Positions 8,391-29,935 of a stretch of 59,332 nucleotides of DNA are shown here, piece after piece. Below the pieces are notes generated by a model that searched no databases, was not told the origin of the DNA, and saw only the letters and a list, made by a program, of their open reading frames with translations. Positions within the stretch are counted from its first letter, which is position 1; each line of letters begins with the position of its first letter. Made by a program: the position numbers and the translations under genes. Source of the DNA: Alphaproteobacteria bacterium (GTDB lineage: Bacteria; Pseudomonadota; Alphaproteobacteria; RF32; CAG-239); the NCBI GenBank assembly GCA_016283295.1, contig JAEEMQ010000010.1, positions 1-59,332 on the forward strand, written 5' to 3'.

Positions 8391-11093
8391 ATGGCTAAAA
8401 ACTATGCTTATATCGGTTCCGAGAATTGTCCTATTCCGTACATGAATGATGACGGGCAATTAGTACTTCTGCGTGATGACAATACCTATATCCGCCTGCC
8501 GGTTATGTATGACGGCACCCCTGAGGAAGTTCAGGCTAAGGTGCTGGGTAAAATGATGCGTAATTTCCCGGTCAGAAGCAGAATTAACGACTTTATGGAA
8601 AACTTGCGTCGCCGCAGTGACAATATCGATGCCAACATTGCGGGCCGCAATATTTTTGAACAGCGTCGTCGCGCCAAATTCATTAAAGGTGAACCTGGAC
8701 GCGGTAAAACGCACGATTTGAAAACCCTTTGCAAAATGGTGGACCCGCAGGGCGGTATTTACGTTAACTGTAAAGACCGTGATTTGAAGACCCTGATTGT
8801 GCAAACCGTTTTGGATACGTCCAATATCGATGTTGAGAAAAATGCCATTGATGCTCGTATCAAAATGTATAACAAGGGTGATAAGAGCGCTTTATCCGCC
8901 GAAGGTATTTCGCTTTTGAAAACCATGTTTGACGATGCCTTTACCATTGATGAAAGCGGCAAAATTTCGCTTGATTGGAACGGTGCACGCGGCAACACAG
9001 CTTTGGATTCGGCTGATCGGGATAAAGAATTCGTAAGCTTGCTGCAACAGTTCTGCAAACGCGAAAACATCGACTATTCGTACAATATCAACAGCGTCGG
9101 CTTTGTGGAAAAAGACGGCGAATTATTACAGGCTCTCGAAAGCGGCCGTCCGATTATCTTAGATGAAATCAACCGCGGTAAAAACCAAGACTTCCTGTTG
9201 CCGTATCTGGACTTTTTGAACGGCAGCTACGAAGATATAAAAATTACCGGCGCCAACGGTCGTGAAATACACCTTTCCAAAGCAGATTTACCGGATACCT
9301 TTATGTTGGAAGCCACCGGTAACCCTGAAACCGCGGAAATGGGTATTAAGGAAAAGATGAGCGAGCCGTTGCGCGACCGTTTTGATATTTCCGAAATGGC
9401 CGATTTCAACCCGAAAGATTTTACGGATATGTATTGCTCTTTGATGACCGGCGTTCCGGTTTCCATCATCAAAGATGCCTATCAGCTTGAAAATGAAGAA
9501 GATTTATCTAATGTTTGTAAGTTTTTGCGCACCGTGGGCTTAAGCAAAAAAGAAATTGACGCGATTCCGCCGGAGCAAATGATATATTTGGATAACGTCG
9601 GAATGTTTTTGGAAACGGCCGAATGCATCGGTAAGGCTCTGTATGAGGTTTATCAGTTCAAAAAAGATGTGGTGGTCAGCTCCAATACCAGCATATATTG
9701 CGAAGACCAGGTGTTGCGTAAACATATTCAGGACGAGCCGTACAGCTTCCGTATTTTGGAAGATATTTGCAACCGTGCCCGTACCTATATTCCGCAACGC
9801 GCCGGCAAATCGTCCAACAACCCGTTCCTGAACTATTCGTTTGCCAAGCCGTCCGGCAGCAACACCCTGCAAATGCGTTTGCGTAACCAGGGCGAAGGCT
9901 GGGAAAAGGCTATTATGGGCGCGGTTAAAGAAGTGTTCACCTGCCAGGGAATGAATCCGGATTTGGGCGCACAAACCCTAGGTATTGCCAACCAAATTTT
10001 GGGACGTAACGGTATCGGCGACGAAGAAAAGCTGATGGAGGCCAGAGCACTCGACCAGCCGCGTTTGAAAGATATGTTTGATTTCCCGATTCCGGGCGAA
10101 AAGAGCACCAAAAAAGCCAGCCAGGAAGCTCTGCGCATTCAGGAAACGATTTGCAAAATGGTTCGCGAAAGATATCCTTCCAACGAAGCCAAGAGCAACG
10201 ATGACATTGTTGACCCGTTCGTGATTGAAGGCGTTCTGACAACCGTCAGAGAAAATCCGTTAGAACAGCACGCTTTGCTCGGAAAAGCCATTTTGGTTAA
10301 CAATGCCGAAGAAACCAATAACCAGATGCCGTTCCTCAAAAACGCGGCAGTGGTGGAAACGCTCGGTACGGCTTCGCTGGTTGAAACCAAGCATTTGGCC
10401 GATGTTGATGCGTTTTTGACCACACTGACCATCGACGGCTTGTCCGATAGCAATTTGGGCACGATTTGGCCGAGTATCTATTCGATGGACAGAAGTAAAG
10501 AGGAACCTTTGGAAGTTCTTTCCGGACGTCACGACAGAATTGCTTACAACTCGTTTATCTTGAAGGATGCTCAAGATAATCCGATTGCGCTCGATATTGT
10601 TCATGTTAAAATGCCGGACGGGAAGAAGGCCGGCGAATCTCATACGTTGATTGTCGGCGAAAAGATTTCTCCGGTGATGGCATTCCGCCTGAAACAAAAC
10701 GGTATTACCTACATTGACCGTAACGGCGGAGATGTGGTCGAAAACGAAGAATCCGGCAAAAAACTGAGCGTGGAAAAGAGAATCAGAGAATGGATCAGCA
10801 GGGCCGAGGCAAATTCCAATTATGATAATTTGGAAGATTTGCTGACCGCGTCCGTTGATGAAAAATTCGATATTTCCAGCGTGGGTAATGTTCAAAGCCT
10901 CTTTAAGTCGGGTCTGGAGAGCCGCAAGGTGGATAACATGGCACAAATGACCACGTTTACGACTTCGGAACTTGACCGCGGCGTTAAAGATGCCAAAGCC
11001 TTTACCGACGAAGACGGCACCAGAATAAGCGAAGAAACCGCTAAGGTATATCAGGTATTCGCTAATTTGGAAGACAGAAGTAACGATTATTGA
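8391..11093 (+). CDS. AAA+ ATPase of the MoxR/CobS/dynein-related (AAA_5-like) clade with a long unknown C-terminal region
   Basis: Walker A GEPGRGKT, Walker B PIILDEINR, sensor-I LEATGN, Arg finger SEPLRDRF. Confidence 0.85.
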   Translation: MAKNYAYIGSENCPIPYMNDDGQLVLLRDDNTYIRLPVMYDGTPEEVQAKVLGKMMRNFPVRSRINDFMENLRRRSDNIDANIAGRNIFEQRRRAKFIKGEPGRGKTHDLKTLCKMVDPQGGIYVNCKDRDLKTLIVQTVLDTSNIDVEKNAIDARIKMYNKGDKSALSAEGISLLKTMFDDAFTIDESGKISLDWNGARGNTALDSADRDKEFVSLLQQFCKRENIDYSYNINSVGFVEKDGELLQALESGRPIILDEINRGKNQDFLLPYLDFLNGSYEDIKITGANGREIHLSKADLPDTFMLEATGNPETAEMGIKEKMSEPLRDRFDISEMADFNPKDFTDMYCSLMTGVPVSIIKDAYQLENEEDLSNVCKFLRTVGLSKKEIDAIPPEQMIYLDNVGMFLETAECIGKALYEVYQFKKDVVVSSNTSIYCEDQVLRKHIQDEPYSFRILEDICNRARTYIPQRAGKSSNNPFLNYSFAKPSGSNTLQMRLRNQGEGWEKAIMGAVKEVFTCQGMNPDLGAQTLGIANQILGRNGIGDEEKLMEARALDQPRLKDMFDFPIPGEKSTKKASQEALRIQETICKMVRERYPSNEAKSNDDIVDPFVIEGVLTTVRENPLEQHALLGKAILVNNAEETNNQMPFLKNAAVVETLGTASLVETKHLADVDAFLTTLTIDGLSDSNLGTIWPSIYSMDRSKEEPLEVLSGRHDRIAYNSFILKDAQDNPIALDIVHVKMPDGKKAGESHTLIVGEKISPVMAFRLKQNGITYIDRNGGDVVENEESGKKLSVEKRIREWISRAEANSNYDNLEDLLTASVDEKFDISSVGNVQSLFKSGLESRKVDNMAQMTTFTTSELDRGVKDAKAFTDEDGTRISEETAKVYQVFANLEDRSNDY

Positions 11094-11167
11094 CGAGTTA
11101 AACCGGCGTCAGCAAAAAACGCTGATGCCGGCGCAATTTTCAATAGTTTGCAGAAAGGTAAAGAATT

Positions 11168-11476
11168 ATGAAAAGTAATGATAAAAAATTGGATATAATT
11201 TCCAGCGAAATGTTTTTGAAACAAATTTTATCCGGTCCGTATGAAACCGTCGGCACCTGCCGTGTGTTCAGCATTGACCGCGAAGCGGATATCAAAGAAG
11301 CCGCACGTTCCGATAAAGTTGCCGTATGCGCCGATATTGCCGCATTTAAGCAAAACCTGGAGAGCAACGGTGCGCCGAATGTGATGATTTCGCAACATTT
11401 GTTGAATAAAACATTGCTTACCCGGTTGGCGGAGGCATCTTCGTCCGAAAAAAATATTATATGGATTAACGACTGA
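11168..11476 (+). CDS. Hypothetical protein (102 aa)
   Basis: Fills the gap between AAA+ and vWA genes; AAAGGT SD-like upstream. Confidence 0.65.
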   Translation: MKSNDKKLDIISSEMFLKQILSGPYETVGTCRVFSIDREADIKEAARSDKVAVCADIAAFKQNLESNGAPNVMISQHLLNKTLLTRLAEASSSEKNIIWIND

Positions 11477-11493
11477 TAACCAGGAGTAGGGGC

Positions 11494-14400
11494 ATGAATA
11501 ACGCCTATAAATCTGCCGATGAAATTATGCATAAACCGTTTGCACCTTTGCGTATGGAAACGAGTGAAAAGTTTTTTGCAAAAAAGCTGACGATGACGGA
11601 TTTCACCGAGTTAAGCACCAGAATGTTGCAAGCCGCGCAGCTTATGCCGAATATTTCCGTATCGGATCTCGGTATTGAAATCAAAAAGGCCTATGAGTTT
11701 TTGAAGACCGGTAAGTGCGAACAATATCCGGATATTAAAGACCCGGCGCAACAATATGTGTGGGGTATGGCGTTAGCCTGTACCGAATGCGATCCGCAAA
11801 TTCGTGCCCGTTGGCAGGGACCGGAAAAGAATCGGCCGATTTATAAACTGGAAGTTTGGGATAAATTAAAACGCAGCGCACCGGCAATCAGCGAGCTGCG
11901 ACGCCACGCCTTTATGGTGGCGGAAATGCCGTTTTTGAAGGAAGATGTCGAACTTAAATGGGGCGCTTGCCAATATCCGAGCGTCGGTTTCTATTTTGAC
12001 CCGCAAAACAATAAGATTAACCTGGATTTGGTGTGGGCGCTCATCGGCGGTTTCGAACATTCGCGTGCGGCGCAGTTGCACGAAATCGGACACAGCCGCG
12101 GCACTTTGAAGTTTACGCGCAAGCTCAACGAGTTGAAAAAAACATACGACGAGCTCAATGAAAAGGCGCGCAAGCGTACCATTACCAAGGAAGAGTATAA
12201 ACAACTCAAGAGCGTGGCACGTGAATATCAATATCGTTTTTCTATTTTTGATGAAGCGGAAAACAGCTATGCCAACCGGTTTGCGGTAAATGCTTCCGAT
12301 TTCGGTATGGTGCGTCAGGATGTCGGTTATGACCTGAACTCGATTGAAACTCAGCTGTTCAGCGTCGGTGCCGATATTTTGCTGAACCGTCAGGAATTTA
12401 AGTTACCGCCGGATACGCCGGCCAATCGTGCTTATAACTTTAAGCGGGCATTGCGTTTGTCTTTCCACGTCAATAACGATATTGTCGAAGACGATGCCAA
12501 AGGCTGGCAGGATTTGGGTATCAATGTCGATTGGATTGAGTATACCGACGACAACGGTAAAGAAATCAAAGGTCCGGAAGCGCTGAAGAAATTGCGCGAA
12601 ATGGCGACTCGCCTGGAGAAATTGCAATTAAGCGAACGCGATTATCATAAGCCGGAAAAGCAGATTATTAAGCTGTTTGAAGATTATTCGGAGAAGAGAT
12701 GTGAAGTAATCGATGAAATATTCGAGCGCTTTGCCAAGAGATATTATGACCAGACCAAGGATAAGGAACGCGAAGACAACAAGCAACAAGGTCAAAACGG
12801 TCAGAACGGCCAGCAGGGTCAAAACGGTCAGCAGGGCCAGCAAGGCCAGAACGGTCAACAAGGCCAACAAGGGCAACAGGGACAACAAGGACAACAAGGC
12901 CAGCAGGGCGGTCAGAGCCAGGGCGGTCAAGGCCAAAATCAGCAAGACCAGGAAGGTCAGCAGAATCAAAACGGCGGTCAGCAAAACCAAGAAGGTCAGG
13001 GCGGCGGACAGGAAGGTCCGGAAGATGAAAACGGCGGCCAGGGCAGTCAGGAGCTGAACGACGACGAAAACAATTCGCGTCAAGGCAAAAATAATTCCGG
13101 CGACCACAGCGATTTACCGGGAACCGACCAGGAAGACGATAAAGTTGACGAAGACGGTCGCGGCGGTAACGGCGACGAGAAGGACAAGTCCGGTAAAGGC
13201 GGTGACGAAAAGGATGAATCCGGCAAGGGCGAAGGCGACGAAAAAGACCAGTCCGGTAAAGGCGGCGAAGGCGACGAAAAGGATAAGTCAGGCGAAGGCA
13301 ACGAAAAGGGCGAAGGTAATAATTCGAGTAATGACCATGACGATTTGCCGGGCATTGACGAAGAAAGCAAGAAGAGCGGCGAAGATGCCGAAAACGAAGA
13401 TAACGACGATTATCCGGGCAAAAAACAAAAGTCGGGTAAAGATCATGACGATTTGCCGGGTGTGGGCGAAGGCGATGACCGCAGCGGCGAAGACGCTCAG
13501 AAAAACAAAAACAAGAAAAAGCCTAAACCTCGTGCCGGCAGTGATGAAGAAAAAGCCGAATTTATGGAGAATTTCGAACAGCAGATTTCAGATGAAGATT
13601 TGACACCGGAAAATATGGTGCCGCTGGAAGATTTGCCGGAAACTCCGGAAGAGGTATATCGGCAGATGATTGAAGCCATAATGGAAAACATTGATGACGG
13701 CGAGGGTATGGACGCCACGGATATTATCCGTATGTCGCCGGAAGAGGAACAGGCAAACTGCGAAAAAGAACATTCCGAAGACAACAGCGACCATCAGCGG
13801 CAGCAAACTTCCAAGCACCAAAAAGTCAAGAGCGACAGCGCTGCCGTATCGTACGAGTTGCCGAAGCATCTGGTAAAGGAAAACGAGTTCCAGAAGATTA
13901 TCGGCAAGCATCAGGAAACCATTGAAAAACTGCGCAATAAGTTTATTGAGCTGCAAAACAAATATTATGACTATGTTCCGGATCAGGATGTTTTGGCCAC
14001 CGTTCCGGATGCCGGCAATTTGCGGGTGGATATTCCGTCGTATATCGAGCGGCTCAAAAAGCAGGCCATGGGCGAGGAGCTTAAGGAGAAGGATTTTGAA
14101 AACTATATCGTCAGCTCCGAGGCCAGAGAAGAAACCAAAGCGCCGATAGACGTTGTTATTCTGATTGATAACTCCGGCTCAATGACCTATAACAATATGG
14201 ATAAGACGGCGATTGAAATCGGTTGCTGTTTATTCCAGGCAACGCGCGATAATCCGGCATTTAACGTATATGTCGAGATGATGCACGATCCGGTTACGTG
14301 GATTGCCAAACCGGGCGAAAACAGCGTGGAAATTTCGCGTCGTTTGGCCACGGTTATGCACGATACCCGTTACGGCGACGATAAAATCGGTGCATGTATC

Positions 14401-19550: not shown

Positions 19551-22500
19551 ATGGATAATCAGGAAATATGGAAAAAATTAAAAGAGCAGGCGGCAACACA
19601 AGGGTATGTCGATTTAACTGACTTTCGGAAGCTGAATACCGAATTTGTTAAAGAAGAATTGCCGAAAGATGCGAAGATGCTGGCGGCGGTAATGAAGACG
19701 GTCGATATTGCCACCTATGCCGATACGGAAGAAGGTGTTGATGAATACAAATTGTCTTATATAGTAAGAGCCGCCAAGGAATTTTGCGATACCGAGAAAA
19801 TTTTTAGCGAATCGCTGCAAAAAGACGGCGGTAAAAATTTGGAAAAACAGTTGCGCTACATAGCAAAAGCACACAAAGGAGCTTCTGTTTTTAGCAGCCG
19901 CATGGAGTACTATATCGAGAATAATCCGTTTTTAGATAAGGTGTTGACGGAGAATCCGGATATAGTCGAAGGTTTGAAAAAATATTTTGATGTGACACGG
20001 AGCGGGTTGACCGGCAGTAAAAATAATTGTAACAGATTGGAAGAATATTATATCAAGTCTGTTGCCACGATTGCCGACAGCGGAAGATTTGCTCCGTATT
20101 TTGACGCTTATGCGATAATCAATTCTACAAGAGAATTAAACGAAAAAGAGAAGTTTTTGCGTCGTATGCAAAATGAGGCTGTCGAGAACGGCGGAAAGCT
20201 ACGGCCGTTAATACTTAAAGAATATATGGATGAGGTTTTGGAAGCATTGCCGGAGCATCCGGAGATTCTGCCGATAATCGAAAAGAGCTTTGCTGTGGAC
20301 AGTAAGGATAAGTATATAGAAGAACATGGTTATAAATATGGAGAAGAAGCATACGAAGCAGATAAAAAAGCGGCCGCGGCAATTTTGCTCTTTGGGAAGC
20401 TGAAAAAGTTTTTCAATGTGGAAAAAGCTTGGGCTTACGGTGAACCCGGCGGCAAAGAGAGGCTGGCTTATGATGATAAGGAGCGAATTGTCAATTTATA
20501 TTTGCAACGCGACGATTTGAACATATATCAGCTGCGAGCCTGTCTGGCAATCAGCCGAAGTGCGACGGAATGGGCAATTAGGAACCATCCGGAAATCAAA
20601 GAGCGCGTCAATAAAATGCTGGAAGGCGCCCAATCGTATAAGTTGTTGCAAAGCTTTGCCAACGACTCTACCCTGAACAAGTTTTTTGATATGCACGAAA
20701 AATTCGAGCGCTCGGCCGAGGCAGTGCAACAGCTGAGCGGCAAGGAAGTGTATACGATTTTTACCACGCCGGAAAGCGAAATTCCGGAAGCGGCGGAGAT
20801 GAACCGGCAATACCGGGTAATTAAAGAATATCTCGAACAAACTAAGGAATTGAGCAAACGTAGTTTTGATGCCGATTTGTGTTATACCGGTTTTCGTAAA
20901 GACGAACGTTGGTACGAAAACGGCGGGCTGAACGAGTTTTTGCAAGATGCCGGCACCTTTAAGGGTGCGCCGGAAATAACGCAAATGGTCGATGAATGTG
21001 TCGGGCGGATTTTTGCTCACTATATCTATAATACAGAGGGCAAAAAATCGCGGTTTTCCTACATGAGCACCAGCGGAATTGAGAAGTTTGCCGAGAATAT
21101 GGAAGAAGAAGTAAAGGCCGACCCGGATTCGTCTAAGGCGCAGTTTTATTTGAAGTACGCTCCGATAGTGTTGGACCAGTACGGATCCGGTATTTATAAA
21201 GGGGTGGCTCAGGTTTTGTTGCCGGAAATGGCGGAAAGAGGCCGGTTTGACGTTTGCAAACAAATTTTTACGGGGATGAAACAGACGGACGGATATTACA
21301 GCGGTGCCAACACTTGGTGTACTTACAATATGCGGGAAGTGCTGTCGTCCGCGGAAACCGAAAAGCCGCTGTTTAAGTTTTATTTGCAAAACGCCAAAGA
21401 ATTTTGTTCGAGCATCGACCAATATTTGGATTTTGCCGCGGTACTCATCGGCAAGGATATGAACGCGCATCCGGAAATTACCGCTCAATTAGGCAAAGAA
21501 ATCGGCGAGATGTATAAAGAAATGAAGCCGAAAGATCCGCAAGAATGTGCCGATAAACTGGCGCGGATTTATCAATATTATCCGGCGCCGGAATTTGCCG
21601 AGATTATTGACGAGAGGAGCAGATCTTTGGAGCTGACGGAAGAAAATTTGTGCAAATATTACACCAACTGGCAATGCACCGGTATGAAGAGTTTCGAATT
21701 TGCGGTGGAAAACATTTTGATTGATATGAAAAAGTTTGTTTATAAACCGCAGGACGGTATTGATTATAAGCCGCTGTTGGAGCGACTTAAGCAGTCCGAT
21801 ATCAAGGAAATAGAAGTGCGTAAGCTGTTGCCGTCGCAAGATACCGATTTTGCCCTGAGCGGTTATAAAACGCTGGAAAGGATACACTTTAATTGCGTGG
21901 GCAAAATCAATGCCGAGGCGCTGTTTGACAATCCGTCTTTAAAGATAGTTGATAAGGAATACGAAGCGGGAGTTACCGTTAATAATTTGGAAAAACTGTT
22001 TGACGGCGCTTTACCGAGTTTGGAGGAATTCAAACTAAGTCCGACGGTTATACCGGAGCAGGAAGAAGCATTATATAATCTCTTGATGGAACGAAAACCG
22101 GAAAGTTTGCATGTATTATACTACGACTTTGAAAGAGAAAAAGCCGAGAATCTGATGGATAGAAATTTACTGTTAGTGGTGAACAGCCACAAGTTGGATA
22201 CGTATCATAATTCTCAGATGTCGCGTAACGAGGAGTTTATCGGCTTTCATAAAGGCACGAGGTCGCTGGAGCAACGCTACGTATTGGATGACGTAATCAG
22301 GTATAAAAGATTGGTCGAAGCCATATCGGTTATGCCGCCGGAAAAACGGCCGACGCTGCAACAGATGGAGAATACTTTTAATCCCGAAGACCCGGGTAAA
22401 CTGCATGAGCGAATCAAAGAATATTACGGCGAAGACAGATATCCGGAGGTTATACAACGCGTGAATGATTTGTCGAACGGCAAAGAAATTAAATTCAATC

Positions 22501-22871
22501 TTGATTTGCAGCTGGCTTGTCGCAACCATACGCTTATCGAACATCTGCAAGAGTTGCCGCCGGAGAAACGGCCGAAGCTTGCCGAGCTGTTTGAAGTCAA
22601 CAATTTGCGAATTATCAAAGGAAGCATCGCCGATAATTTGATAGGAGAAGACAGAAAGGCCGACCCGAAAACCTGGCAGAAAGTTATTGATATATTGAAC
22701 CCGAGCGACGAAGAACTCCTTGAAGCTGGCAGAACGAAAAAATGTTCCGCAGAAGTAAAGGAAATACTTGACAGAGTGGTTACGGTGCGCAAAGATGTCA
22801 AAGAGGATGCCTTAAAAGCAAAACGGCGTGCCGCTTTCGAAAGCTGGAAGAAAAACAATACAAAAGATTAG
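19551..22871 (+). CDS. Large hypothetical protein, paralog B
   Basis: 1106 aa; AGGAG SD; shared blocks such as ADLCYTGFRKDERW vs ADLCYSGYNKDGRW and LPEMAERGRFDV vs LPEMAKKGRFDV. Confidence 0.85.
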   Translation: MDNQEIWKKLKEQAATQGYVDLTDFRKLNTEFVKEELPKDAKMLAAVMKTVDIATYADTEEGVDEYKLSYIVRAAKEFCDTEKIFSESLQKDGGKNLEKQLRYIAKAHKGASVFSSRMEYYIENNPFLDKVLTENPDIVEGLKKYFDVTRSGLTGSKNNCNRLEEYYIKSVATIADSGRFAPYFDAYAIINSTRELNEKEKFLRRMQNEAVENGGKLRPLILKEYMDEVLEALPEHPEILPIIEKSFAVDSKDKYIEEHGYKYGEEAYEADKKAAAAILLFGKLKKFFNVEKAWAYGEPGGKERLAYDDKERIVNLYLQRDDLNIYQLRACLAISRSATEWAIRNHPEIKERVNKMLEGAQSYKLLQSFANDSTLNKFFDMHEKFERSAEAVQQLSGKEVYTIFTTPESEIPEAAEMNRQYRVIKEYLEQTKELSKRSFDADLCYTGFRKDERWYENGGLNEFLQDAGTFKGAPEITQMVDECVGRIFAHYIYNTEGKKSRFSYMSTSGIEKFAENMEEEVKADPDSSKAQFYLKYAPIVLDQYGSGIYKGVAQVLLPEMAERGRFDVCKQIFTGMKQTDGYYSGANTWCTYNMREVLSSAETEKPLFKFYLQNAKEFCSSIDQYLDFAAVLIGKDMNAHPEITAQLGKEIGEMYKEMKPKDPQECADKLARIYQYYPAPEFAEIIDERSRSLELTEENLCKYYTNWQCTGMKSFEFAVENILIDMKKFVYKPQDGIDYKPLLERLKQSDIKEIEVRKLLPSQDTDFALSGYKTLERIHFNCVGKINAEALFDNPSLKIVDKEYEAGVTVNNLEKLFDGALPSLEEFKLSPTVIPEQEEALYNLLMERKPESLHVLYYDFEREKAENLMDRNLLLVVNSHKLDTYHNSQMSRNEEFIGFHKGTRSLEQRYVLDDVIRYKRLVEAISVMPPEKRPTLQQMENTFNPEDPGKLHERIKEYYGEDRYPEVIQRVNDLSNGKEIKFNLDLQLACRNHTLIEHLQELPPEKRPKLAELFEVNNLRIIKGSIADNLIGEDRKADPKTWQKVIDILNPSDEELLEAGRTKKCSAEVKEILDRVVTVRKDVKEDALKAKRRAAFESWKKNNTKD

Positions 22872-22893: not shown

Positions 22894-24006
22894 ATGGATT
22901 TGAGAGTATATTATAACAGTTACGGGCAAAGAGTGCCGCTGGGAGTTTTGTCTGACCGTGACGAAACATATATTTTTGAGTACGATGCCGGGTTCGAATA
23001 CAGAGAAATCGATGTGTGTCCGTTGTTTCCGTCTGCCGACGTGCGCAAGATAAAAGGCACCAAAAATATGTTGCCGTGTTTGTTTTGGGACTTTTTGCCG
23101 TCGGGGTATAATGCCGAAGTTTTGCATAAGTTGAGTTCAACCTCCATCCCGCTTTTGAAACAGCTGGCAATGCACGGCCGGCGCGGTGTGGGCGCGTTGG
23201 AATTTGAGCCGGAGTTGGCTTACAGTTACGAAAAAATACCGGTTGATTTGGATATGGCGGAAAGCGATATTCGTTTTGAAAATAATTTGAGCCGGCAGTT
23301 TCGTTTGTCCGCCGGTATTGCCGGGCATACGCCGAAAATCTCGGTAAAAGTTTCAAAAGATAAGCAGCAAATTTATGAAGATACCGATGACGAAGGCTTT
23401 GCCGATTGGATAATCAAATTGCCGTCGTCGCAGAAAAATCCGCTGGACGGGGTGGCCGAGTTTGTATATAACAAAATGGCAAAAAAGGCCGGTATTACCG
23501 TGCCGCAGTTTTATTTGTTTAATGCCAGAGCTTCGGCCGGATATTTCGGCAGTAAGCGTTTTGATTATCAAAACGGGATAAAGCGCCATGTTCTTTCCAT
23601 CGGCTCGCTGATGAACAAAAACTATCTGTTTGAAAGAATCTATCTCGGTTATTATACGGATATTGTCAGAAAAATCGCGCCGGAAGAAATCGAAAAGCTG
23701 CTGAGATTGCTGATGTTTGATTTGAAAACCGGCAACGAAGATATACGCGGCGGCGGGATTTCCATGATTTTGACCGAAGAAAATAAGTGGGTTTTGGCGC
23801 CGGCTTATGATTTGGTGCCGTTCTCTTTGGAAAATGATTATACTCCGAAAATGCTGAAGAAAGATTATGAAAAAGATGCCGTCGATGCGCTTATTTATGA
23901 TTTGTGCGAAGCGGCGGAATTTGACTTTGATACGGCCGCAAAAATGATTGAACAGGTTGAGGACGCGGTGGCCGAATATTCTCGCTTGAGTTTAGAGTTT
24001 AAATAA
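22894..24006 (+). CDS. HipA-family kinase-like protein with a degenerate catalytic loop
   Basis: YIFEYD, DFLPSGY, GVGALEFEP, IAGHTPK, WIIKLP, FGSKRFD, GNED, LAPAYDL. Confidence 0.8.
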   Translation: MDLRVYYNSYGQRVPLGVLSDRDETYIFEYDAGFEYREIDVCPLFPSADVRKIKGTKNMLPCLFWDFLPSGYNAEVLHKLSSTSIPLLKQLAMHGRRGVGALEFEPELAYSYEKIPVDLDMAESDIRFENNLSRQFRLSAGIAGHTPKISVKVSKDKQQIYEDTDDEGFADWIIKLPSSQKNPLDGVAEFVYNKMAKKAGITVPQFYLFNARASAGYFGSKRFDYQNGIKRHVLSIGSLMNKNYLFERIYLGYYTDIVRKIAPEEIEKLLRLLMFDLKTGNEDIRGGGISMILTEENKWVLAPAYDLVPFSLENDYTPKMLKKDYEKDAVDALIYDLCEAAEFDFDTAAKMIEQVEDAVAEYSRLSLEFK

Positions 24007-24076
24007 ATTATAACGATTTATCAATATGTTAAATGCCAGTAGGAAAGTGTTTTTGTCGGTAAAAGGCAAAAACATC

Positions 24077-24104
24077 TTGACATTTTTATTTTTGGAATTA
24101 TCGT
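24077..24104 (+). promoter_or_regulatory. Sigma70-type promoter of the NAD salvage operon
   Basis: TTGACA (24077-24082), 16-bp spacer, TATCGT; the predicted start near 24110 coincides with the first base of the leader hairpin. Confidence 0.55.
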
Positions 24105-24109
24105 AAAAT

Positions 24110-24222
24110 TGTTCTCGGTGCCTGCAGGGCTTATAGGCAGAGAACAGTATAAAACCGAGCCGGTTTAATGAGATGAAAGTATTTTTATTTTGTTGACGGC
24201 TCCTGTTTAAGGAGTTTTTTTT
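24110..24222 (+). promoter_or_regulatory. Structured 5' leader, copy 1 (candidate riboswitch with SD-sequestering hairpin)
   Basis: TGTTCTC/GAGAACA + TGCCTG/TAGGCA stems, loop CAGGGCTTA; second hairpin AAACC-GAGCC-GGTTT; GGCTCCT/AGGAGTT hairpin over the SD. Confidence 0.6.
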
Positions 24223-24765
24223 ATGAGTAAATATAAGTATAAACACGGTTTTTGTATTATGCGTGCCCAGCCGTTTCATATCGGGCACCAAAAAATCATT
24301 GATCAGATGTTGAAAGAGTGCGAACGCGTAACGGTGGCTCTGGGCTCGATTCAGGAACAGGGAACGGCGCGCAACCCGCTCAACTATACCACTCGCAAGA
24401 AAATGATTCAGAATATTTATCGCGACAAGCCGGAATACGAGCGGCTCAAAATCATCGGGCTGTTTGATATCAATAATCCGGCGGAGTGGGGCGATTTTGT
24501 GGTTGATTTCCTGAAAGAGAGTTTTCCGGATTTGCCGCTGCCGGAGGCATATTATGCCGGTTCGGAATATGATGCGCACTGGTTTAAGGAGCATTTCAAG
24601 CATATTGAACTGGTGGACCGCACCGACCCGAATTTTCCGTTTGTAACCGGAACCATGGTGCGCGATATGATTAAATTCGGCGACAAGCGTTGGAAAAATT
24701 TTGTGGCGCCGGAAAATCATCATCTGGTGGAAGAACATTTTAACAAGAAAAAAGGTATTGTTTAA
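24223..24765 (+). CDS. NMN/NaMN adenylyltransferase (NadM-like nucleotidyltransferase)
   Basis: MRAQPFHIGH, LGSIQE, RNPL..TTRKKMI, VTGTMVR; NAD salvage context. Confidence 0.85.
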   Translation: MSKYKYKHGFCIMRAQPFHIGHQKIIDQMLKECERVTVALGSIQEQGTARNPLNYTTRKKMIQNIYRDKPEYERLKIIGLFDINNPAEWGDFVVDFLKESFPDLPLPEAYYAGSEYDAHWFKEHFKHIELVDRTDPNFPFVTGTMVRDMIKFGDKRWKNFVAPENHHLVEEHFNKKKGIV

Positions 24766-24772
24766 TTTTATG

Positions 24773-24840
24773 CGTCTGCGTCTTGCGCAGGGCTTATGCA
24801 AGACAGACGATTTTAACCTGATAAGCCTGAAGGGAAGGAA
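24773..24840 (+). promoter_or_regulatory. Structured intergenic leader, copy 2 (candidate riboswitch)
   Basis: CGTCTG/CAGACG + TCTTGCG/TGCAAGA stems, identical loop CAGGGCTTA; complement TAAGCC at 24822-24827 next to the SD region. Confidence 0.6.
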
Positions 24841-24843
24841 ATT

Positions 24844-25467
24844 ATGACTCAAAATATTTTAATGCGGATAGATTTTCAAAACGATTTTGTGCATCCGCAC
24901 GGCGCACTCAGCCTGAAGGCGCCGGAATTGATAGAAAAACAGCAAAAATTTGCCGATGCATTGTTTGTCGGCAGTTTTGATAAAATCATCGATACGTATG
25001 ACACGCATTTTGCCGAAACTTACGGCAATACTTCGGAATCCGACAGCTTTCCGCCGCATTGTATTCAAGGCACTTGGGGCTGGCAGCAGGCGGCGCCGTT
25101 TAAGCCGGAGTTGGAGGCGGAGAAAATGTATAAATCCACCACCAATATTTGGAACGAGTTGAAACAATATCGCACCCTGCAACAGGATTGGAGCGATACC
25201 AACGTTTATTTGTGCGGCGTTTTGAGCGATGTGTGTGTCAAACAGGCTTTGAATGGTCTGTTAAAGCACGGCGCGAAGGTGGCGATTATTGAGGATTTAT
25301 GCCTGGGAGCCGAGCAGCAAATCGGCGATATTTTGCAAAAAGAAGTTTATCAGCCGTTTATCGAGGCGGGTTATCTGCGGCGGATTACGGCGGCGCAATT
25401 TTTCCGCAAAGAATTGCATAATAAAAAAATTCAACACAATTTAGTTCATAAAAGTTTAGGAGAATAG
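24844..25467 (+). CDS. pncA: Nicotinamidase (isochorismatase family)
   Basis: IDFQNDFVHPHGAL, DTH, FPPHCIQGTWG, GVLSDVCV; adjacent to pncB. Confidence 0.85.
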   Translation: MTQNILMRIDFQNDFVHPHGALSLKAPELIEKQQKFADALFVGSFDKIIDTYDTHFAETYGNTSESDSFPPHCIQGTWGWQQAAPFKPELEAEKMYKSTTNIWNELKQYRTLQQDWSDTNVYLCGVLSDVCVKQALNGLLKHGAKVAIIEDLCLGAEQQIGDILQKEVYQPFIEAGYLRRITAAQFFRKELHNKKIQHNLVHKSLGE

Positions 25468-25469
25468 CC

Positions 25470-26963
25470 ATGACAAATACCAGACCGAATATTTTGGAAA
25501 ACGGAACCCCGTTGTTTTGCGATTTATATCATTTAACCATGGCGCAGGCGTGGTTTTTGGACGGCAAAGCCGAGGAAATCAAAACTTCGGAAGCGTTCTT
25601 CAGAAAAAATCCGTTCGGCGGCAGCTATTTGCTGTGCGCCGGCTTGGGCGAGTTTATACAATGGCTGGAAAATTGGCACTTTACCAAAGAAGATATTGAT
25701 TATCTGCGCCAGGAAAAAAATGCCGACGGCAGCGCGCGTTTTGATGAGCGCTTTTTGCAATTTTTGGACGGGAAAAAGTTAGAGGTCAGTATTAATGCGG
25801 TGCCGGAAGGCGAGTTGGTGTTCCCGAACGAGCCGGTTTATTCGGTAACCGGTCCGACCTGGCAGGTGGATTTGCTGGAGGCGGCGCTTTTGAATGCGTT
25901 TAACTCGCAGAGTTTGGTGGCAACCAAAGCCTCCCGTATGGCGTATGCCGCTTCTCTTGACGGCAAGCAACGCCCGCTGTTGGAGTTCGGTTTGCGGCGC
26001 GGTCACGAGCTCGGCGGATTTTCCGAAACCAGAGCGGCATTTATCGGCGGGGCCACCGGTACTTCCAACACGGCGGCGGCCAAACATTACGGGATTCCGG
26101 ATTCCGGCACCATGGCGCACTCTTTTGTGATGAGCTACGAGAAAGAGGTTGATGCTTTTAAGGCCTTTATGCGCGGCAATCCGGGTAACACCACGTTGCT
26201 GGTCGATACTTATGATACACGCGAGGGAATTAAACATGCCATCGAGGCAACCAAAGAAGTAGGTTTGCCGCTGATGGGAATGCGGGTGGATTCCGGCGAT
26301 TTGGCTTATTGGGCCAAAGAAGCGCGCAAAATGATTGATGCCGAGGGCGATAACCCGCTGTTTGCCAATGTTAAGATGGTGGCTTCCAACGATTTGGACG
26401 AGCATTTGATTGAAAATCTGTTGGTGGTGCAAAAAGCGCCGTACGATATTTTGGCGGCCGGTACTAAACTTGTGACGGCGTATGACACGCCGGCGCTGGG
26501 CGGAGTGTTCAAAACCAAGCAATATATGGGGCGGACGTGTATTAAAATCGCCGAGGGTAAAACTACTATTCCGGGTGCGACCAATGTGGTGCGAATCGTG
26601 CGCAACGGCAAGTTTGAGGGCGATATTATCTGCGGTGCGGACGCAACCGATTTGTTGCAAGAGGGCAAGCTGAGCCGCAATATTACTTCGTATACGCTTG
26701 ACAGCCTGAACGGATTGAAACGCAATTTTAAGGCCGGCGAGCAGGCTTATTTGTTGTTGCAACCGGTGGTAAAAGACGGCAAGGTAATCAACCCGCCGGA
26801 GCTGAATTTGCAAAAATTGCAACAGCGTAGCAAGGAAAATCTGGCGCGGCTCGATGAAGCATACAAGCGTTTGGCTAATCCGCATATTTACGGCGTCGGA
26901 CTGGAAACAAACTTGTATAATATACGGCAAAATCTGATTATGAATGCCGGGAAGGAGAGATAG
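25470..26963 (+). CDS. pncB: Nicotinate phosphoribosyltransferase
   Basis: DLYHLTMAQA, LEFGLRR, GTSN, GTMAHSFV, LLVDTYDT, RVDSGDL, ASNDLDE. Confidence 0.95.
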   Translation: MTNTRPNILENGTPLFCDLYHLTMAQAWFLDGKAEEIKTSEAFFRKNPFGGSYLLCAGLGEFIQWLENWHFTKEDIDYLRQEKNADGSARFDERFLQFLDGKKLEVSINAVPEGELVFPNEPVYSVTGPTWQVDLLEAALLNAFNSQSLVATKASRMAYAASLDGKQRPLLEFGLRRGHELGGFSETRAAFIGGATGTSNTAAAKHYGIPDSGTMAHSFVMSYEKEVDAFKAFMRGNPGNTTLLVDTYDTREGIKHAIEATKEVGLPLMGMRVDSGDLAYWAKEARKMIDAEGDNPLFANVKMVASNDLDEHLIENLLVVQKAPYDILAAGTKLVTAYDTPALGGVFKTKQYMGRTCIKIAEGKTTIPGATNVVRIVRNGKFEGDIICGADATDLLQEGKLSRNITSYTLDSLNGLKRNFKAGEQAYLLLQPVVKDGKVINPPELNLQKLQQRSKENLARLDEAYKRLANPHIYGVGLETNLYNIRQNLIMNAGKER

Positions 26964-26966
26964 GCG

Positions 26967-27746
26967 ATGGAAAAACTGTGGCATAAATTGCAAGACGGTT
27001 TGCGCCAATATTGCGCCGAAAACGGCTTTAATAAAGCTATTCTCGGGCTCTCCGGCGGGATAGATTCGGCGCTGACCGCGGTGTTGGCAGCAGATACGTT
27101 GGGCGGCAAAAACGTTACGGCGATTATGATGAAAACCCGCTATACGTCGGATTTGAGCTTGCAAATTGCGCGCGAAATCGCCGAGCTCAATCATCTTGAT
27201 TATCACGAGCTGGATATTGAGCCGTTGGTGCAAGCGGAAATCGATTTTTTGGCGCGGGCGTTCAACGGCGAAGTGCGCGGCATCGTGCAGGAAAATCTGC
27301 AGGCACGTATTCGCGGACAGCTGTTGATGGCGTGGTCTAACCAAAACGGCGGGTTGGTGTTGGCTTGCGGCAATAAGTCGGAGGCGCTGACCGGATATTG
27401 CACACTCTACGGCGACACCTGCGGCGGCCTAATGCCAATCGGCAACGTGTATAAAACGGCGATTTTTGCGCTGGCCGAGTGGCGCAATAAACAGGGGTAT
27501 GCTTTGCCGGCCGCGGTAATTACGCGCGCACCGTCGGCGGAATTGGCGGAGGGGCAGAAAGATGAAGATTCGTTGCCGCCATACGCTGTTTTGGACGAAG
27601 TATTGAAATTGCTTTATGATGAGCAAAAGTCAGTAGCGGAAGCGGTTGCTGCCGGTTTTGATGCGGCTTTGGTCGAGCGTGTGGAAAAATTAATTCGCCG
27701 CTCGGAGTTCAAACGCAAACAGATGGCGCCGGCTTTGGCAATATGA
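26967..27746 (+). CDS. nadE: NAD+ synthetase, single domain (no glutaminase domain)
   Basis: LGLSGGIDSA, ENLQARIRG, GNKSEALTGYCTLYGD, PSAELAEGQKDEDSLPPY. Confidence 0.95.
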   Translation: MEKLWHKLQDGLRQYCAENGFNKAILGLSGGIDSALTAVLAADTLGGKNVTAIMMKTRYTSDLSLQIAREIAELNHLDYHELDIEPLVQAEIDFLARAFNGEVRGIVQENLQARIRGQLLMAWSNQNGGLVLACGNKSEALTGYCTLYGDTCGGLMPIGNVYKTAIFALAEWRNKQGYALPAAVITRAPSAELAEGQKDEDSLPPYAVLDEVLKLLYDEQKSVAEAVAAGFDAALVERVEKLIRRSEFKRKQMAPALAI

Positions 27747-27834: not shown

Positions 27835-27863
27835 TTGCAAAACGACAAAAATAGTGCTACTAT
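27835..27863 (+). promoter_or_regulatory. Sigma70-type promoter
   Basis: TTGCAA, 17-bp spacer, TACTAT with extended TG. Confidence 0.6.
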
Positions 27864-27889
27864 GGTGCGAAACAAACAAGGGGAAATTT

Positions 27890-29935
27890 ATGACCGAAGA
27901 AAAAACGCAAAGAGAACGCAATCAGGATATCTTGAATTCATACGACGGGTCGGACATTATGCATCCGCAAGTGATATTGCGCAAGGTTAAGCAAGTCGAC
28001 GGCGATATTCTTGATGATGGATTGTTCGGAGTAAAGCTCAGTTGCTATCGTGTATATGATGCTTATGAGATAATGGACAGGTTACCGGAAGAATATCAAT
28101 GGGCGAGCCGGAGCATTGCTGATTTTATGGATGAATATACAAAGCTGCTGGAGCATCCGACGGAGAGAATACAGTTGGAAGCGTTGGCCAAAAGCGGTTG
28201 CCGGATTTTTATTGAGGACAAATGTTCCTCAACGGACGGAAACGGTAAAAGCGCGGGATATAGCGGACAATCTTCACATAATATTGCGGGAAAACCGGCC
28301 ATTAAGTTGGTGGCATACAGATTCGGTAACAGAACTTTTTTGCACGAGGCCATACATAATTCGGATTTGCGGCTGTGCTGGAGTTATTTCACTAAGCAAA
28401 AGATTTATCAGGCGGCGATTATGATGCTTGACGCGCAAAAAATCCAGTCTTCGCACGGCTATCAAAGCGTAAAAAAACTGCGCCATATTAACGAGGTTTA
28501 TCAAGCCGGCGAAATTTATACCGAAGGCTTGGCCTGGATCGGCTCCATGTCGATGGAAGAATTGGCTCATGAAAAAAATCATATCGGCAAAAACTTAAAA
28601 GTTCTGCATTCTCTGTATACCGAAGCATTGTTGAAAGAGCAAGGGGCGGTGTTGGATTGTTTTCGCTTTTGGCAACCTTCGGCTCATATAGGAAAATTGT
28701 TGGAAACTTATAATGCCAACGGCCAGAAAATCGGCAAAGAGCGCGATAAAATATTAAAACAACAGAAACATCTCTGGGACGAGATGATGAAATTCCGCAA
28801 GGAAATAAATAAACTCAAGGTAAACGGGCTGGAGAGCAAAACATTGTCGCTTTGGGGCGGTTCGTATTATTATTGCCAAACCGGCGGTGTTAAATCGCTG
28901 TTTCCGTTGTATATGGCGCAAGACAAGGCCGACAAAGCATTTCAACAAATTGAAGATGATGAAAAATTGTCGCCGAACACCAAAAAGCGGCGGCATACCG
29001 CAGTATTAAAAGCGTTGTTTAAGGAAATTAAGGCGGGAGATTTGAACGTTCCTTCATTGTTTGCGGAAAAGTTTTTGACCTGCAAGGAATATCTGTATAA
29101 AATGCGTAAATATTATCCGTCTTATGATTATAATGATATGCTTTTCGACTTGTCGCCGAAGGAAAACGAGCCGAAAGGAATCGCCGGACGTAAGCGGCTT
29201 TATGATAATTTAGAAGCTCAGGCCAATATTTTGTATATGCAGATGCATTCCGTTTATAATCTCAAAGAGTGTGCGTTGGCATATTTGTATAAGGCATATC
29301 ACGAATCCGTGCGTTCCGGCGATGAAATGGTCAAGATGGCCATGATGAGCAATACTAGTTCGCTTGAACATAAAAGAGAGTATGTGAAAGACTTGATAAC
29401 CAGAGCGCGGGAAAAAACGTCGCGGCGTATGACAGGGCGTTATGCGGCGGAGGCCTTTATGGGCATGGAATATTTGTTGCAGAAATATAATCTGTCGCGA
29501 AATACGCACGGGGTGTTGGAAGCGGATGATTTGCGGAATTTTTACACTTCGGAGAAAGTCGTCGACGATTTGAAATGGTTCAAAACCAAAGAGAATGCCG
29601 ACGGTTTGTCGCTTGAAACGTATAAGTGTTTTGACGCGGGAATTGTCAGCGATTATTGTTCGCGACCGGCAAGCGCTTTTAAGGCAGAAAGCGGGGATTA
29701 TATACCGAATAACTATAAAAACCAAGACTCACAAAAGGTTGCCCATACGCGCGCCTTGTATGAATTTTTGGCACTGCGGCACGCTTATCAGGCCAAAACG
29801 CATTGCAAGAAGTTTCCGCAGCATTTGCAGTTGCAGGCGTTTATGCCGAACTCCGATTATTACCGACAAATCAGATTTTTGGCGGCACCTCAGGTAATTT
29901 CCGCAAAAGATTCCAAAGATAACGGCGGGAAGTGA
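27890..29935 (+). CDS. Hypothetical protein with a zincin-like HExxH...E motif
   Basis: TFLHEAIHNSD and downstream YTEGLAW; ATG 27890 with AAGGGGA SD preferred over track start 27854. Confidence 0.75.
   Translation: MTEEKTQRERNQDILNSYDGSDIMHPQVILRKVKQVDGDILDDGLFGVKLSCYRVYDAYEIMDRLPEEYQWASRSIADFMDEYTKLLEHPTERIQLEALAKSGCRIFIEDKCSSTDGNGKSAGYSGQSSHNIAGKPAIKLVAYRFGNRTFLHEAIHNSDLRLCWSYFTKQKIYQAAIMMLDAQKIQSSHGYQSVKKLRHINEVYQAGEIYTEGLAWIGSMSMEELAHEKNHIGKNLKVLHSLYTEALLKEQGAVLDCFRFWQPSAHIGKLLETYNANGQKIGKERDKILKQQKHLWDEMMKFRKEINKLKVNGLESKTLSLWGGSYYYCQTGGVKSLFPLYMAQDKADKAFQQIEDDEKLSPNTKKRRHTAVLKALFKEIKAGDLNVPSLFAEKFLTCKEYLYKMRKYYPSYDYNDMLFDLSPKENEPKGIAGRKRLYDNLEAQANILYMQMHSVYNLKECALAYLYKAYHESVRSGDEMVKMAMMSNTSSLEHKREYVKDLITRAREKTSRRMTGRYAAEAFMGMEYLLQKYNLSRNTHGVLEADDLRNFYTSEKVVDDLKWFKTKENADGLSLETYKCFDAGIVSDYCSRPASAFKAESGDYIPNNYKNQDSQKVAHTRALYEFLALRHAYQAKTHCKKFPQHLQLQAFMPNSDYYRQIRFLAAPQVISAKDSKDNGGK

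Follow-up and report, generated by a model that had tools for sequence, protein, structure and literature searches.

NAD+ (nicotinamide adenine dinucleotide) is among the most abundant coenzymes. Only two NAD+ riboswitch classes, both rare, have been described, and their authors argued that more should exist (PMC7749635). Here we describe an RNA motif that occurs twice in a 59,332-nucleotide (nt) stretch of DNA (contig JAEEMQ010000010.1, hereafter the window) from a bacterium of the Alphaproteobacteria, once upstream of a gene for a NadM-like adenylyltransferase and once upstream of pncA, in an operon for NAD salvage. The motif is a real, conserved and lineage-restricted cis-regulatory RNA, and it is absent from Rfam and from the literature that we searched. 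Judging from sequence comparison, we lean towards reading this undescribed leader RNA, which serves a salvage operon in uncultured gut Alphaproteobacteria-like genomes, as most likely an OFF riboswitch for NAD+ or a near pyridine-nucleotide relative, with ligand binding as our proposal.

NAD+-II, the pnuC motif of Streptococcus, was proposed to be a translational OFF switch (PMC7749635; PMC9841397). In PMC9841397, its helix P1 is joined to a second helix, P1a, which carries a variable terminal loop; the joint, J1, is a large conserved internal loop, and it forms a 3-base-pair (bp) pseudoknot with the Shine-Dalgarno (SD) sequence itself. The motif described here is likewise a small leader RNA of a NAD-salvage-related gene, in which long-range 3' pairing appears to end in SD sequestration. 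Unlike NAD+-II, it has only a 2-nt bulge, its terminal loop is invariant and is itself the pairing partner over 5–8 bp, and the SD lies outside the long-range pairing, in a separate helix (P2 or a terminator, below). It also differs in taxon and in the genes regulated, and shows no Rfam match to that family.

The nadA motif (NAD+-I) of Acidobacteria is described as two adjacent homologous domains upstream of nadA, each with a ACANCCCC bulge and an internal loop (PMC7297122; PMC6859854). Our motif shares with it the use of bulged stem-loops as cis-regulatory RNA of NAD biosynthesis genes. It differs in that its copies lie ~660 nt apart before different genes, each with a bulge of two nucleotides (GG or CG) and without an internal loop, and in being attached to salvage rather than de novo genes; again there is no Rfam match. 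Thus, judged by the text descriptions of the two classes, the motif fits neither NAD+-I nor NAD+-II.

Among the papers listed by full-text literature searches, only the nadA and pnuC classes appeared, with no mention of a third NAD+ class, a nadM motif or a pncA motif. A preliminary description of this DNA had put the two copies forward as a candidate new riboswitch class, and that novelty withstood comparison with Rfam 15, in which both NAD+ families are present: no family matched anywhere in the window at gathering thresholds, and at E ≤ 10 over 23950–24900 there were only five chance-level matches, all to unrelated families.

In mechanism, the motif resembles the kissing-loop platform of cobalamin riboswitches, where the sensor loop pairs with the loop of a hairpin that hides the ribosome-binding site and the contact turns translation OFF; here too, a loop would contact a downstream SD-hiding hairpin. 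The cobalamin aptamer is large and multi-helical, whereas the sensor here would be one bulged hairpin. Guanidine-II (mini-ykkC) RNAs are similarly very small switches in which two hairpins with conserved loops touch. There, identical ACGR tetraloops make contact in an ON-type switch, whereas our motif has complementary loops on hairpins of different length (13 bp versus 3–6 bp) and appears to be of the OFF type.

Two hairpins with different stems and one loop

The motif is built on a bulged hairpin, P1. Copies before the NadM-like gene are termed type 1, and those before pncA type 2. The two in the window are:

24110–24146, + strand: copy 1, type-1 P1, TGTTCTC-GG-TGCCTG-CAGGGCTTA-TAGGCA-GAGAACA, with loop CAGGGCUUA
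24773–24809, + strand: copy 2, type-2 P1, CGTCTG-CG-TCTTGCG-CAGGGCTTA-TGCAAGA-CAGACG, with bulged G and loop as in copy 1

Both span 37 nt. In each, two bulged nucleotides on the 5' side interrupt the 13 pairs, and a G-U pair closes the identical 9-nt loop; their stem sequences are unlike each other. The hairpin is the minimum-free-energy (MFE) structure of each in RNAfold (−13.9 kcal/mol, z −2.05, for copy 1; −14.0 kcal/mol, z −2.20, for copy 2). Direct reading confirmed, to the base, the structures and all coordinates that the preliminary description had assigned.

A covariance model (R1) built from both copies, run over the whole 1.65-Mb source genome (95% complete) at E ≤ 10, found only these two (E 4e-11 and 9e-11). 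By itself, the loop 9-mer is unremarkable: allowing up to one mismatch, it occurs 9 times in the window versus 7.5 expected. An exact 9-mer at 44438 was rejected as a member, there being no hairpin arms in the adjoining sequence read; likewise rejected was a third exact occurrence in the genome of the 11-mer GCAGGGCTTAT, which is a degenerate CRISPR (clustered regularly interspaced short palindromic repeats) repeat. One locus per genome was then retrieved and searched again with R1. After exclusion of two weak matches (E 0.28 and 0.93), 126 matches at E ≤ 2e-4 were counted in 68 genomes, of which 58 have two copies and 10 have one.

Upstream of copy 1, the following was found:

24077–24104, + strand: promoter-like site, TTGACA-16-TATCGT, with 10 of 12 matches in a consensus scan, ending 5 nt before copy 1

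In 56 of the 68 related type-1 leaders, a TTGA[CT] box has its first base 33–35 nt ahead of the hairpin; ten of the other 12 have TTGCAA or TTGTAA at the same place, and two are outliers at 17 and 24 nt. The promoter-like site together with the conserved −35 box suggests that copy 1 starts approximately at the 5' end of the transcript, in keeping with the start predicted earlier. No promoter-like box precedes any second copy (0 of 58), so copy 2, which does lie where it had been placed, within the 78 nt that separate the NadM-like gene from pncA, is probably internal to the transcript. A gut metatranscriptome contained one 264-nt contig, from a relative less than 90% alike, that touches 24104–24293 and includes promoter sequence.

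Conservation and covariation of P1

When 127 distinct copies, types 1 and 2 together, are compared, changes on both sides are seen in 11 of the 12 modelled pairs of P1, and 96.7% of the cells are paired, versus 30–51% when the partner is slid by 1–3 columns. The observed covariation score was reached by no shuffle. Within type 2, 10 of 13 pairs changed on both sides over 52 distinct copies, with 98.7% of the cells paired. The stem covariation that the preliminary description had suggested from two sequences is thus strong. Furthermore, the loop-closing pair is G-U in 117 of the 127 copies and U-G pairs are frequent, indicating that the fold belongs to the transcribed strand.

Conservation extends beyond the helices. 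Bulge position 8 is a nearly invariant G, kept in both types. It is joined by the loop N-A-G-G-G-C-U-U-A and the U after it, an A-A-M-C block before the complement described below, and the RAGCC of that complement. In type 1, the 5' UGUUC is conserved as well.

A second hairpin displays a complement of the loop

Downstream of each P1 lies a smaller hairpin, P2:

24152–24166, + strand: type-1 P2, an AAACC/GGUUU hairpin displaying GAGCC (24157–24161)
24817–24833, + strand: type-2 P2, with CCU (24817–24819, anti-SD), a loop containing AUAAGCCU (24821–24828) and AGG (24831–24833)

In copy 1, GAGCC is complementary to GGCUU of the P1 loop and, when read as GAGCCG, to CGGCUC at 24197–24202. In copy 2, UAAGCC (24822–24827) is flanked by CCU and AGG, and the longer AUAAGCCU is complementary to the P1 loop. 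The complement stands at a fixed distance from P1 in every copy.

P2 itself is conserved as a structure. AGCC is flanked by a P2 helix in 68 of 68 type-1 copies, the arms of which vary and still pair (AAAC/GUUU, AACC/GGUU, GAAC/GUUC, AACUU/GAGUU, AGAG/CUCU). In type 2, 80 of 83 distinct copies have a CCY:RGG helix, most often as CCC:GGG (34) or CCU:AGG (25), and its 3' arm ends 7–10 nt ahead of the start codon in 73 of the 80, a spacing that identifies this arm as the SD.

The pairing between the P1 loop and its complement is 94.6% paired over the 127 sequences. At pair 22:63, 122 are U-A, 4 are C-G and none is unpaired. Compensatory changes occur in several lineages, bearing out the pseudoknot covariation that had been anticipated. 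Loop U22 has become C, and its partner A has become G, in three species of the genus and in locus L148 (GGCCUA/UAGGCC), in L139 and L122 (GGCC/GGCC), and also in a genome from a different family (GGCCU/AGGCC), the type-1 copy of which has GGCUA/UAGCC in place of GGCUU/GAGCC. The preliminary description had placed a pseudoknot inside a second small hairpin. Indeed, the complement sits in the loop of P2, and P2 is conserved and covarying; what needed refinement is the role of P2, which is coupled to an SD-sequestering platform.

Competing pairings ahead of the start codons

The sequence between P2 and the NadM-like start codon contains two further elements:

24168–24195, + strand: variable A/U-rich hairpin, which in the RNAfold structure brings GAGCC and GGCUC together
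24197–24222, + strand: copy 1 platform, a cGGCUCCU (anti-SD)-GUUUA-AGGAG (SD) hairpin and U8, followed by AUG at 24223

A consensus scan reports the second as a terminator-like hairpin (24198–24216) followed by T8, with five Watson-Crick and two G-U pairs. It looks like an intrinsic (Rho-independent) terminator with a short stem, and we treat it as a candidate. The arrangement (C)GGCUCCU-loop-AGGAG-U7–9-AUG stands just before the start in 67 of 68 type-1 leaders, that of L094 being divergent and without a U-run; the (x)GCUCC element is found in all 68, and GCUCCU in 67. Because the terminator 5' arm GGCUC is also complementary to GAGCC, the latter has two possible partners. Extending this pairing by the base after GAGCC and the base before GGCUC gives G:C in 43, A:U in 8, G:U in 2 and non-pairs in 12 of the 65 leaders (of 68) that read GGCUCC.

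When folded without a pseudoknot term, the MFE structure has the anti-SD paired with GAGCC and the SD free in 54 of 67 distinct leaders. When GAGCC and the P1 loop are blocked, the SD-sequestering hairpin forms in 66 of the 67, at a mean cost of 3.2 kcal/mol. Since a loop pairing of 5–6 bp is of the order of this cost, the two states would be nearly balanced, as a switch needs.

For copy 2, the SD region of pncA, whose AUG is at 24844, provides the 3' arm of P2. The anti-SD:SD helix covaries from C:G to U:A among the type-2 copies that have it. Three generic features of a riboswitch are thus present, namely a covarying leader structure on the sense strand, genes of one pathway and, in silico, mutually exclusive pairings.

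The A/U-rich hairpin is replaced in some relatives by a far longer insert. Between P2 and the terminator hairpin, 168–178 nt of extra, partly conserved sequence were seen in the type-1 leaders of L049, L056, L071, L077, L087, L089 and L090, and shorter inserts of 84–105 nt at the same place in L067, L074, L076, L083 and L092. The insert includes GATAAATTTATCTAGCTGGCAACTAAAGCAATTTTACGCGG.

Gene context and distribution

The compact operon that follows the motif comprises four genes:

24223–24765, + strand: NadM-like nicotinamide/nicotinate-nucleotide adenylyltransferase, 180 amino acids (aa), first gene of the operon (Pfam CTP_transf_like)
24844–25467, + strand: pncA, isochorismatase-family nicotinamidase, open reading frame (ORF) with Pfam Isochorismatase
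25470–26963, + strand: pncB, nicotinate phosphoribosyltransferase, ORF with Pfam NAPRTase
26967–27746, + strand: nadE, NAD synthase, ORF with Pfam NAD_synthase

Together they provide the four steps from nicotinamide to NAD, and the same gene order is found again in relatives. The NadM-like protein matches the NMNAT (nicotinamide mononucleotide adenylyltransferase) families of NCBIfam, in every case under the curated cut-off. NadA, canonical NadD, PnuC and the NiaR 3H domain had no match in the source genome, so the operon looks like the sole NAD route of the organism. Such an operon is a typical riboswitch target. Across the genus, the NadD cut-off was reached in none of 50 genomes, of which 19 have weak matches, probably to other cytidylyltransferases.

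The association with these genes is exclusive. Every first copy (68 of 68) is followed by the NadM-like gene and every second copy (58 of 58) by pncA, in each case on the coding strand. The scattering over unrelated genes and orientations that would mark a mobile repeat was therefore not seen, 126 of 126 copies being on the sense strand directly upstream of one gene or the other. Within the genus, 12 of 50 genomes have exactly two R1 matches, separated by ~670 nt, and the motif is present in 8 of 8 genomes encoding the NadM-like protein and in 0 of 17 without the gene. A protein-guided scan of 185,579 species genomes gave 148 NadM-like relatives. The motif was present in 80 of 80 when the best 80 of the 148 loci, which overlap with genomes of the order-level sample below, were examined (68 with two copies and 12 with one). 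Six of eight single-copy genomes examined have no pncA adjoining the first gene; thus, the second copy travels with pncA.

Taxonomically, R1 matches were obtained in 60 of 151 genomes of the order, with 59 of 149 in the family, and in 12 of 20 genera. A broader covariance model (R2: P1, linker and RAGCC) found the motif beyond the family in only three further genomes of a class sample (150 genomes, one per family), and in none of 150 further genomes of a phylum sample. Each of the three distant genomes is the sole member of its order in the collection. The 80 NadM-like loci come almost all from uncultured gut, rumen or faecal Alphaproteobacteria.

One of the distant genomes offers the only non-NAD context seen. 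Its first copy (L100) precedes a NadM-like gene and pncB, and a near-identical second copy (L102:1501–1556, − strand) stands before a gene for a 293-aa RlmN/Cfr-like radical S-adenosylmethionine (SAM) protein (L102:533–1414, − strand), the best NCBIfam match of which is RlmN at E 3e-25, far under the cut-off.

Shortened operons were also observed, and all of them retain the first motif copy. The NadM-like gene, pncA and nadE occur without pncB in L067, L069, L074, L078 and L083; only the NadM-like gene and nadE in L068, L081, L087 and L094; and in L091 and L096 the NadM-like gene is the sole match within the retrieved stretch. Within the genus, only 12 of the 50 genomes have the salvage operon, and NadD reaches its cut-off in none of the 50.

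Proposed switch and its effector

We propose that P1, the 13-bp bulged hairpin, is the sensor, and that its loop NAGGGCUUA would pair with the GAGCC or AUAAGCCU displayed in the P2 loop. In copy 1, the ON state would have GAGCC free of P1 and paired with GGCUC, leaving the SD and the transcript open; in the OFF state, the P1 loop would hold GAGCC, and the terminator/anti-SD hairpin (GGCUCCU/AGGAG-U8-AUG) would form. GGGCUUA of the P1 loop would in this way imitate GGCUCCU of the anti-SD. In copy 2, the P2 loop locked onto the P1 loop would stabilize the weak anti-SD:SD helix and block translation of pncA. Type 2 would need no third partner, as its helix of 3–5 bp, which closes an 11-nt loop, is weak by itself and is expected to form only while P1 holds that loop. 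Since the gaps ahead of pncB and nadE are 2–3 nt, translational coupling may extend the control to these genes. Both platforms are predicted to turn OFF upon loop-loop stabilization, which is the sign expected for end-product feedback.

A small molecule that stabilizes the loop-loop contact is favored as the effector because there are conserved bases beyond those needed for pairing, all parts of the switch are present in cis, no regulator gene accompanies the motif, and the operon looks like the sole NAD route of a reduced genome. What the sequences show are the helices, the loop complementarity, the competition for GAGCC and the exclusive association with the two genes; that a small molecule acts on the contact, which one it is and the sign of regulation are inferred. 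In its fullest form, the proposal is that of a third NAD-related riboswitch class, restricted to uncultured gut/rumen Alphaproteobacteria-like lineages, whose ligand-stabilized P1 loop mimics the anti-SD and steals GAGCC, and which serves the operon twice, acting on transcription or translation at the 5' end and on translation at the internal site. On the comparative evidence, we consider this specific form an evenly balanced bet. If true, a third class structurally unrelated to the others would extend the picture of NAD+ riboswitches, would constitute a compact pyridine-nucleotide sensor of ~60 nt, and would show how the only NAD route is regulated in uncultured gut bacteria that seem to depend wholly on niacin from the host or the diet.

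Several points weigh against the riboswitch proposal. First, the aptamer would be small, with no multi-helix junction, and few of the conserved bases are unpaired (bulged G8, A17, G18, U25 and the AA before P2). Second, the distribution is narrow, covering one family and three lone genomes, so part of the conservation reflects shared ancestry. Third, because the segment is almost invariant, loop-loop covariation rests on one pair and few sequences, and the type-2 copy of L178 has AAGCA for AAGCC, a mismatch. Fourth, P2 begins only 1 nt after P1 in some type-1 copies, so that P2 and the loop pairing may not coexist there as a simple coaxial kissing complex; the short spacing points to a bend at the bulge or, alternatively, to an H-type pseudoknot with P2 opened. 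Fifth, the OFF hairpin is already the MFE structure in 12 of 67 leaders, and the switch model leaves the conserved 5' UGUUC of type 1 without explanation. Finally, strict co-occurrence with an unusually conserved NadM-like gene fits autoregulation by that protein equally well.

This last point leads to the rival that survives best, a protein-driven switch in which an RNA-binding factor, possibly the NadM-like enzyme loaded with NAD or nicotinate adenine dinucleotide (NaAD), stabilizes the OFF fold. In the PyrR type of attenuation, a homologue of a pathway enzyme binds purine-bulge hairpins with conserved loops in several leaders and thereby sets the terminator/antiterminator balance. Our motif has the same bulged purine and conserved loop on a single hairpin, a classic protein operator shape, and the same placement in several leaders of one operon with alternative terminator folds; it differs in that the loop has its own conserved cis complement and no protein partner is known. 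The motif and the NadM-like gene go together in every one of the 80 loci and in the genus (8 of 8 versus 0 of 17). Conservation is far higher in the NadM-like protein than in PncA (69–100% identity among relatives versus 42–100%), and a trans factor could use the RlmN/Cfr-like copy as easily as a metabolite could. On the other hand, Pfam and NCBIfam matched only the cytidylyltransferase fold in the NadM-like protein and found no RNA-binding domain. Nor does a conserved regulator gene adjoin the operon: the upstream neighbors, 139 ORFs, fall into 81 clusters, the largest of which occurs in 8 loci. Moreover, the competition of the P1 loop and the anti-SD for GAGCC constitutes a complete switch that needs only a small stabilizing ligand. 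We regard a protein effector as less likely than a small molecule, yet as a serious rival; even if one exists, the motif would be a well-supported new regulatory RNA with an unusual switch based on mimicry.

Improbable, in our view, is a ligand-independent role without any sensing, in which the 5' hairpin would protect the mRNA from decay and the intergenic one would fix the translation ratio between the first gene and pncA or provide a processing site. Stable 5'-terminal hairpins can stabilize transcripts, and the positions suit such roles, copy 1 being at the predicted 5' end and copy 2 intergenic within the operon. Left unexplained, however, are the invariant loop on two different stems, the conserved downstream complement with its compensatory changes, the competing GAGCC:GGCUC pairing and the bulged G kept in both types.

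Very improbable is a model in which the loop is the target of a trans-acting RNA, such as a small RNA or a tRNA with a UAAGCCCU-like stretch, and the downstream complement is a decoy. An accessible, invariant 9-nt loop could pair in trans, but the cis complement is at a fixed distance in every copy. In the source genome, the hairpin model finds the two copies only, in searches that did not include a scan aimed at a trans complement, and the only other exact 11-mer is the CRISPR repeat remnant.

Scarcely credible is a DNA-level element, whether a palindromic repressor operator or a mobile repeat: although copy 1 reaches into the transcription start region and TGTTC is conserved at its 5' end, the arms vary yet stay complementary around a conserved part that is an asymmetric loop, the G-U pairs (117 of 127 at the closing position) would be A-C mismatches on the other strand, the two copies per genome always have one orientation relative to the genes, and a promoter-like box is found at copy 2 in 0 of 58 cases.

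Neighboring and minor features

In viral contigs, the strict type-1 pattern matched once, inside a coding region with no complementary arms or NAD genes, and was set aside as chance. Phage NMNAT proteins share 25–28% identity with the NadM-like protein among the 10 matches listed.

Directly upstream of the operon promoter lies a gene for a HipA-like kinase (22894–24006, + strand; Pfam HipA_C and Couple_hipA). The large flanking ORFs at 19551–22871 (+ strand, 1106 aa) and 27854–29935 (+ strand, 693 aa) had no Pfam or NCBIfam match at E ≤ 0.001.

Two repeat regions were seen in connection with matches to the loop. A CRISPR-like array in the source genome (G000:C39, ~10135–13145; L003:1300–1750, − strand) has ~33-nt repeats (ATCTCAATCCCCGCAATTACGGGGCTATTAT...), and one decayed repeat of this array contains the loop 11-mer. 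In the window, positions 57300–57500 contain short imperfect repeats with CTTTACC/TTCTTTACC-like units, which look like a low-complexity coding repeat.

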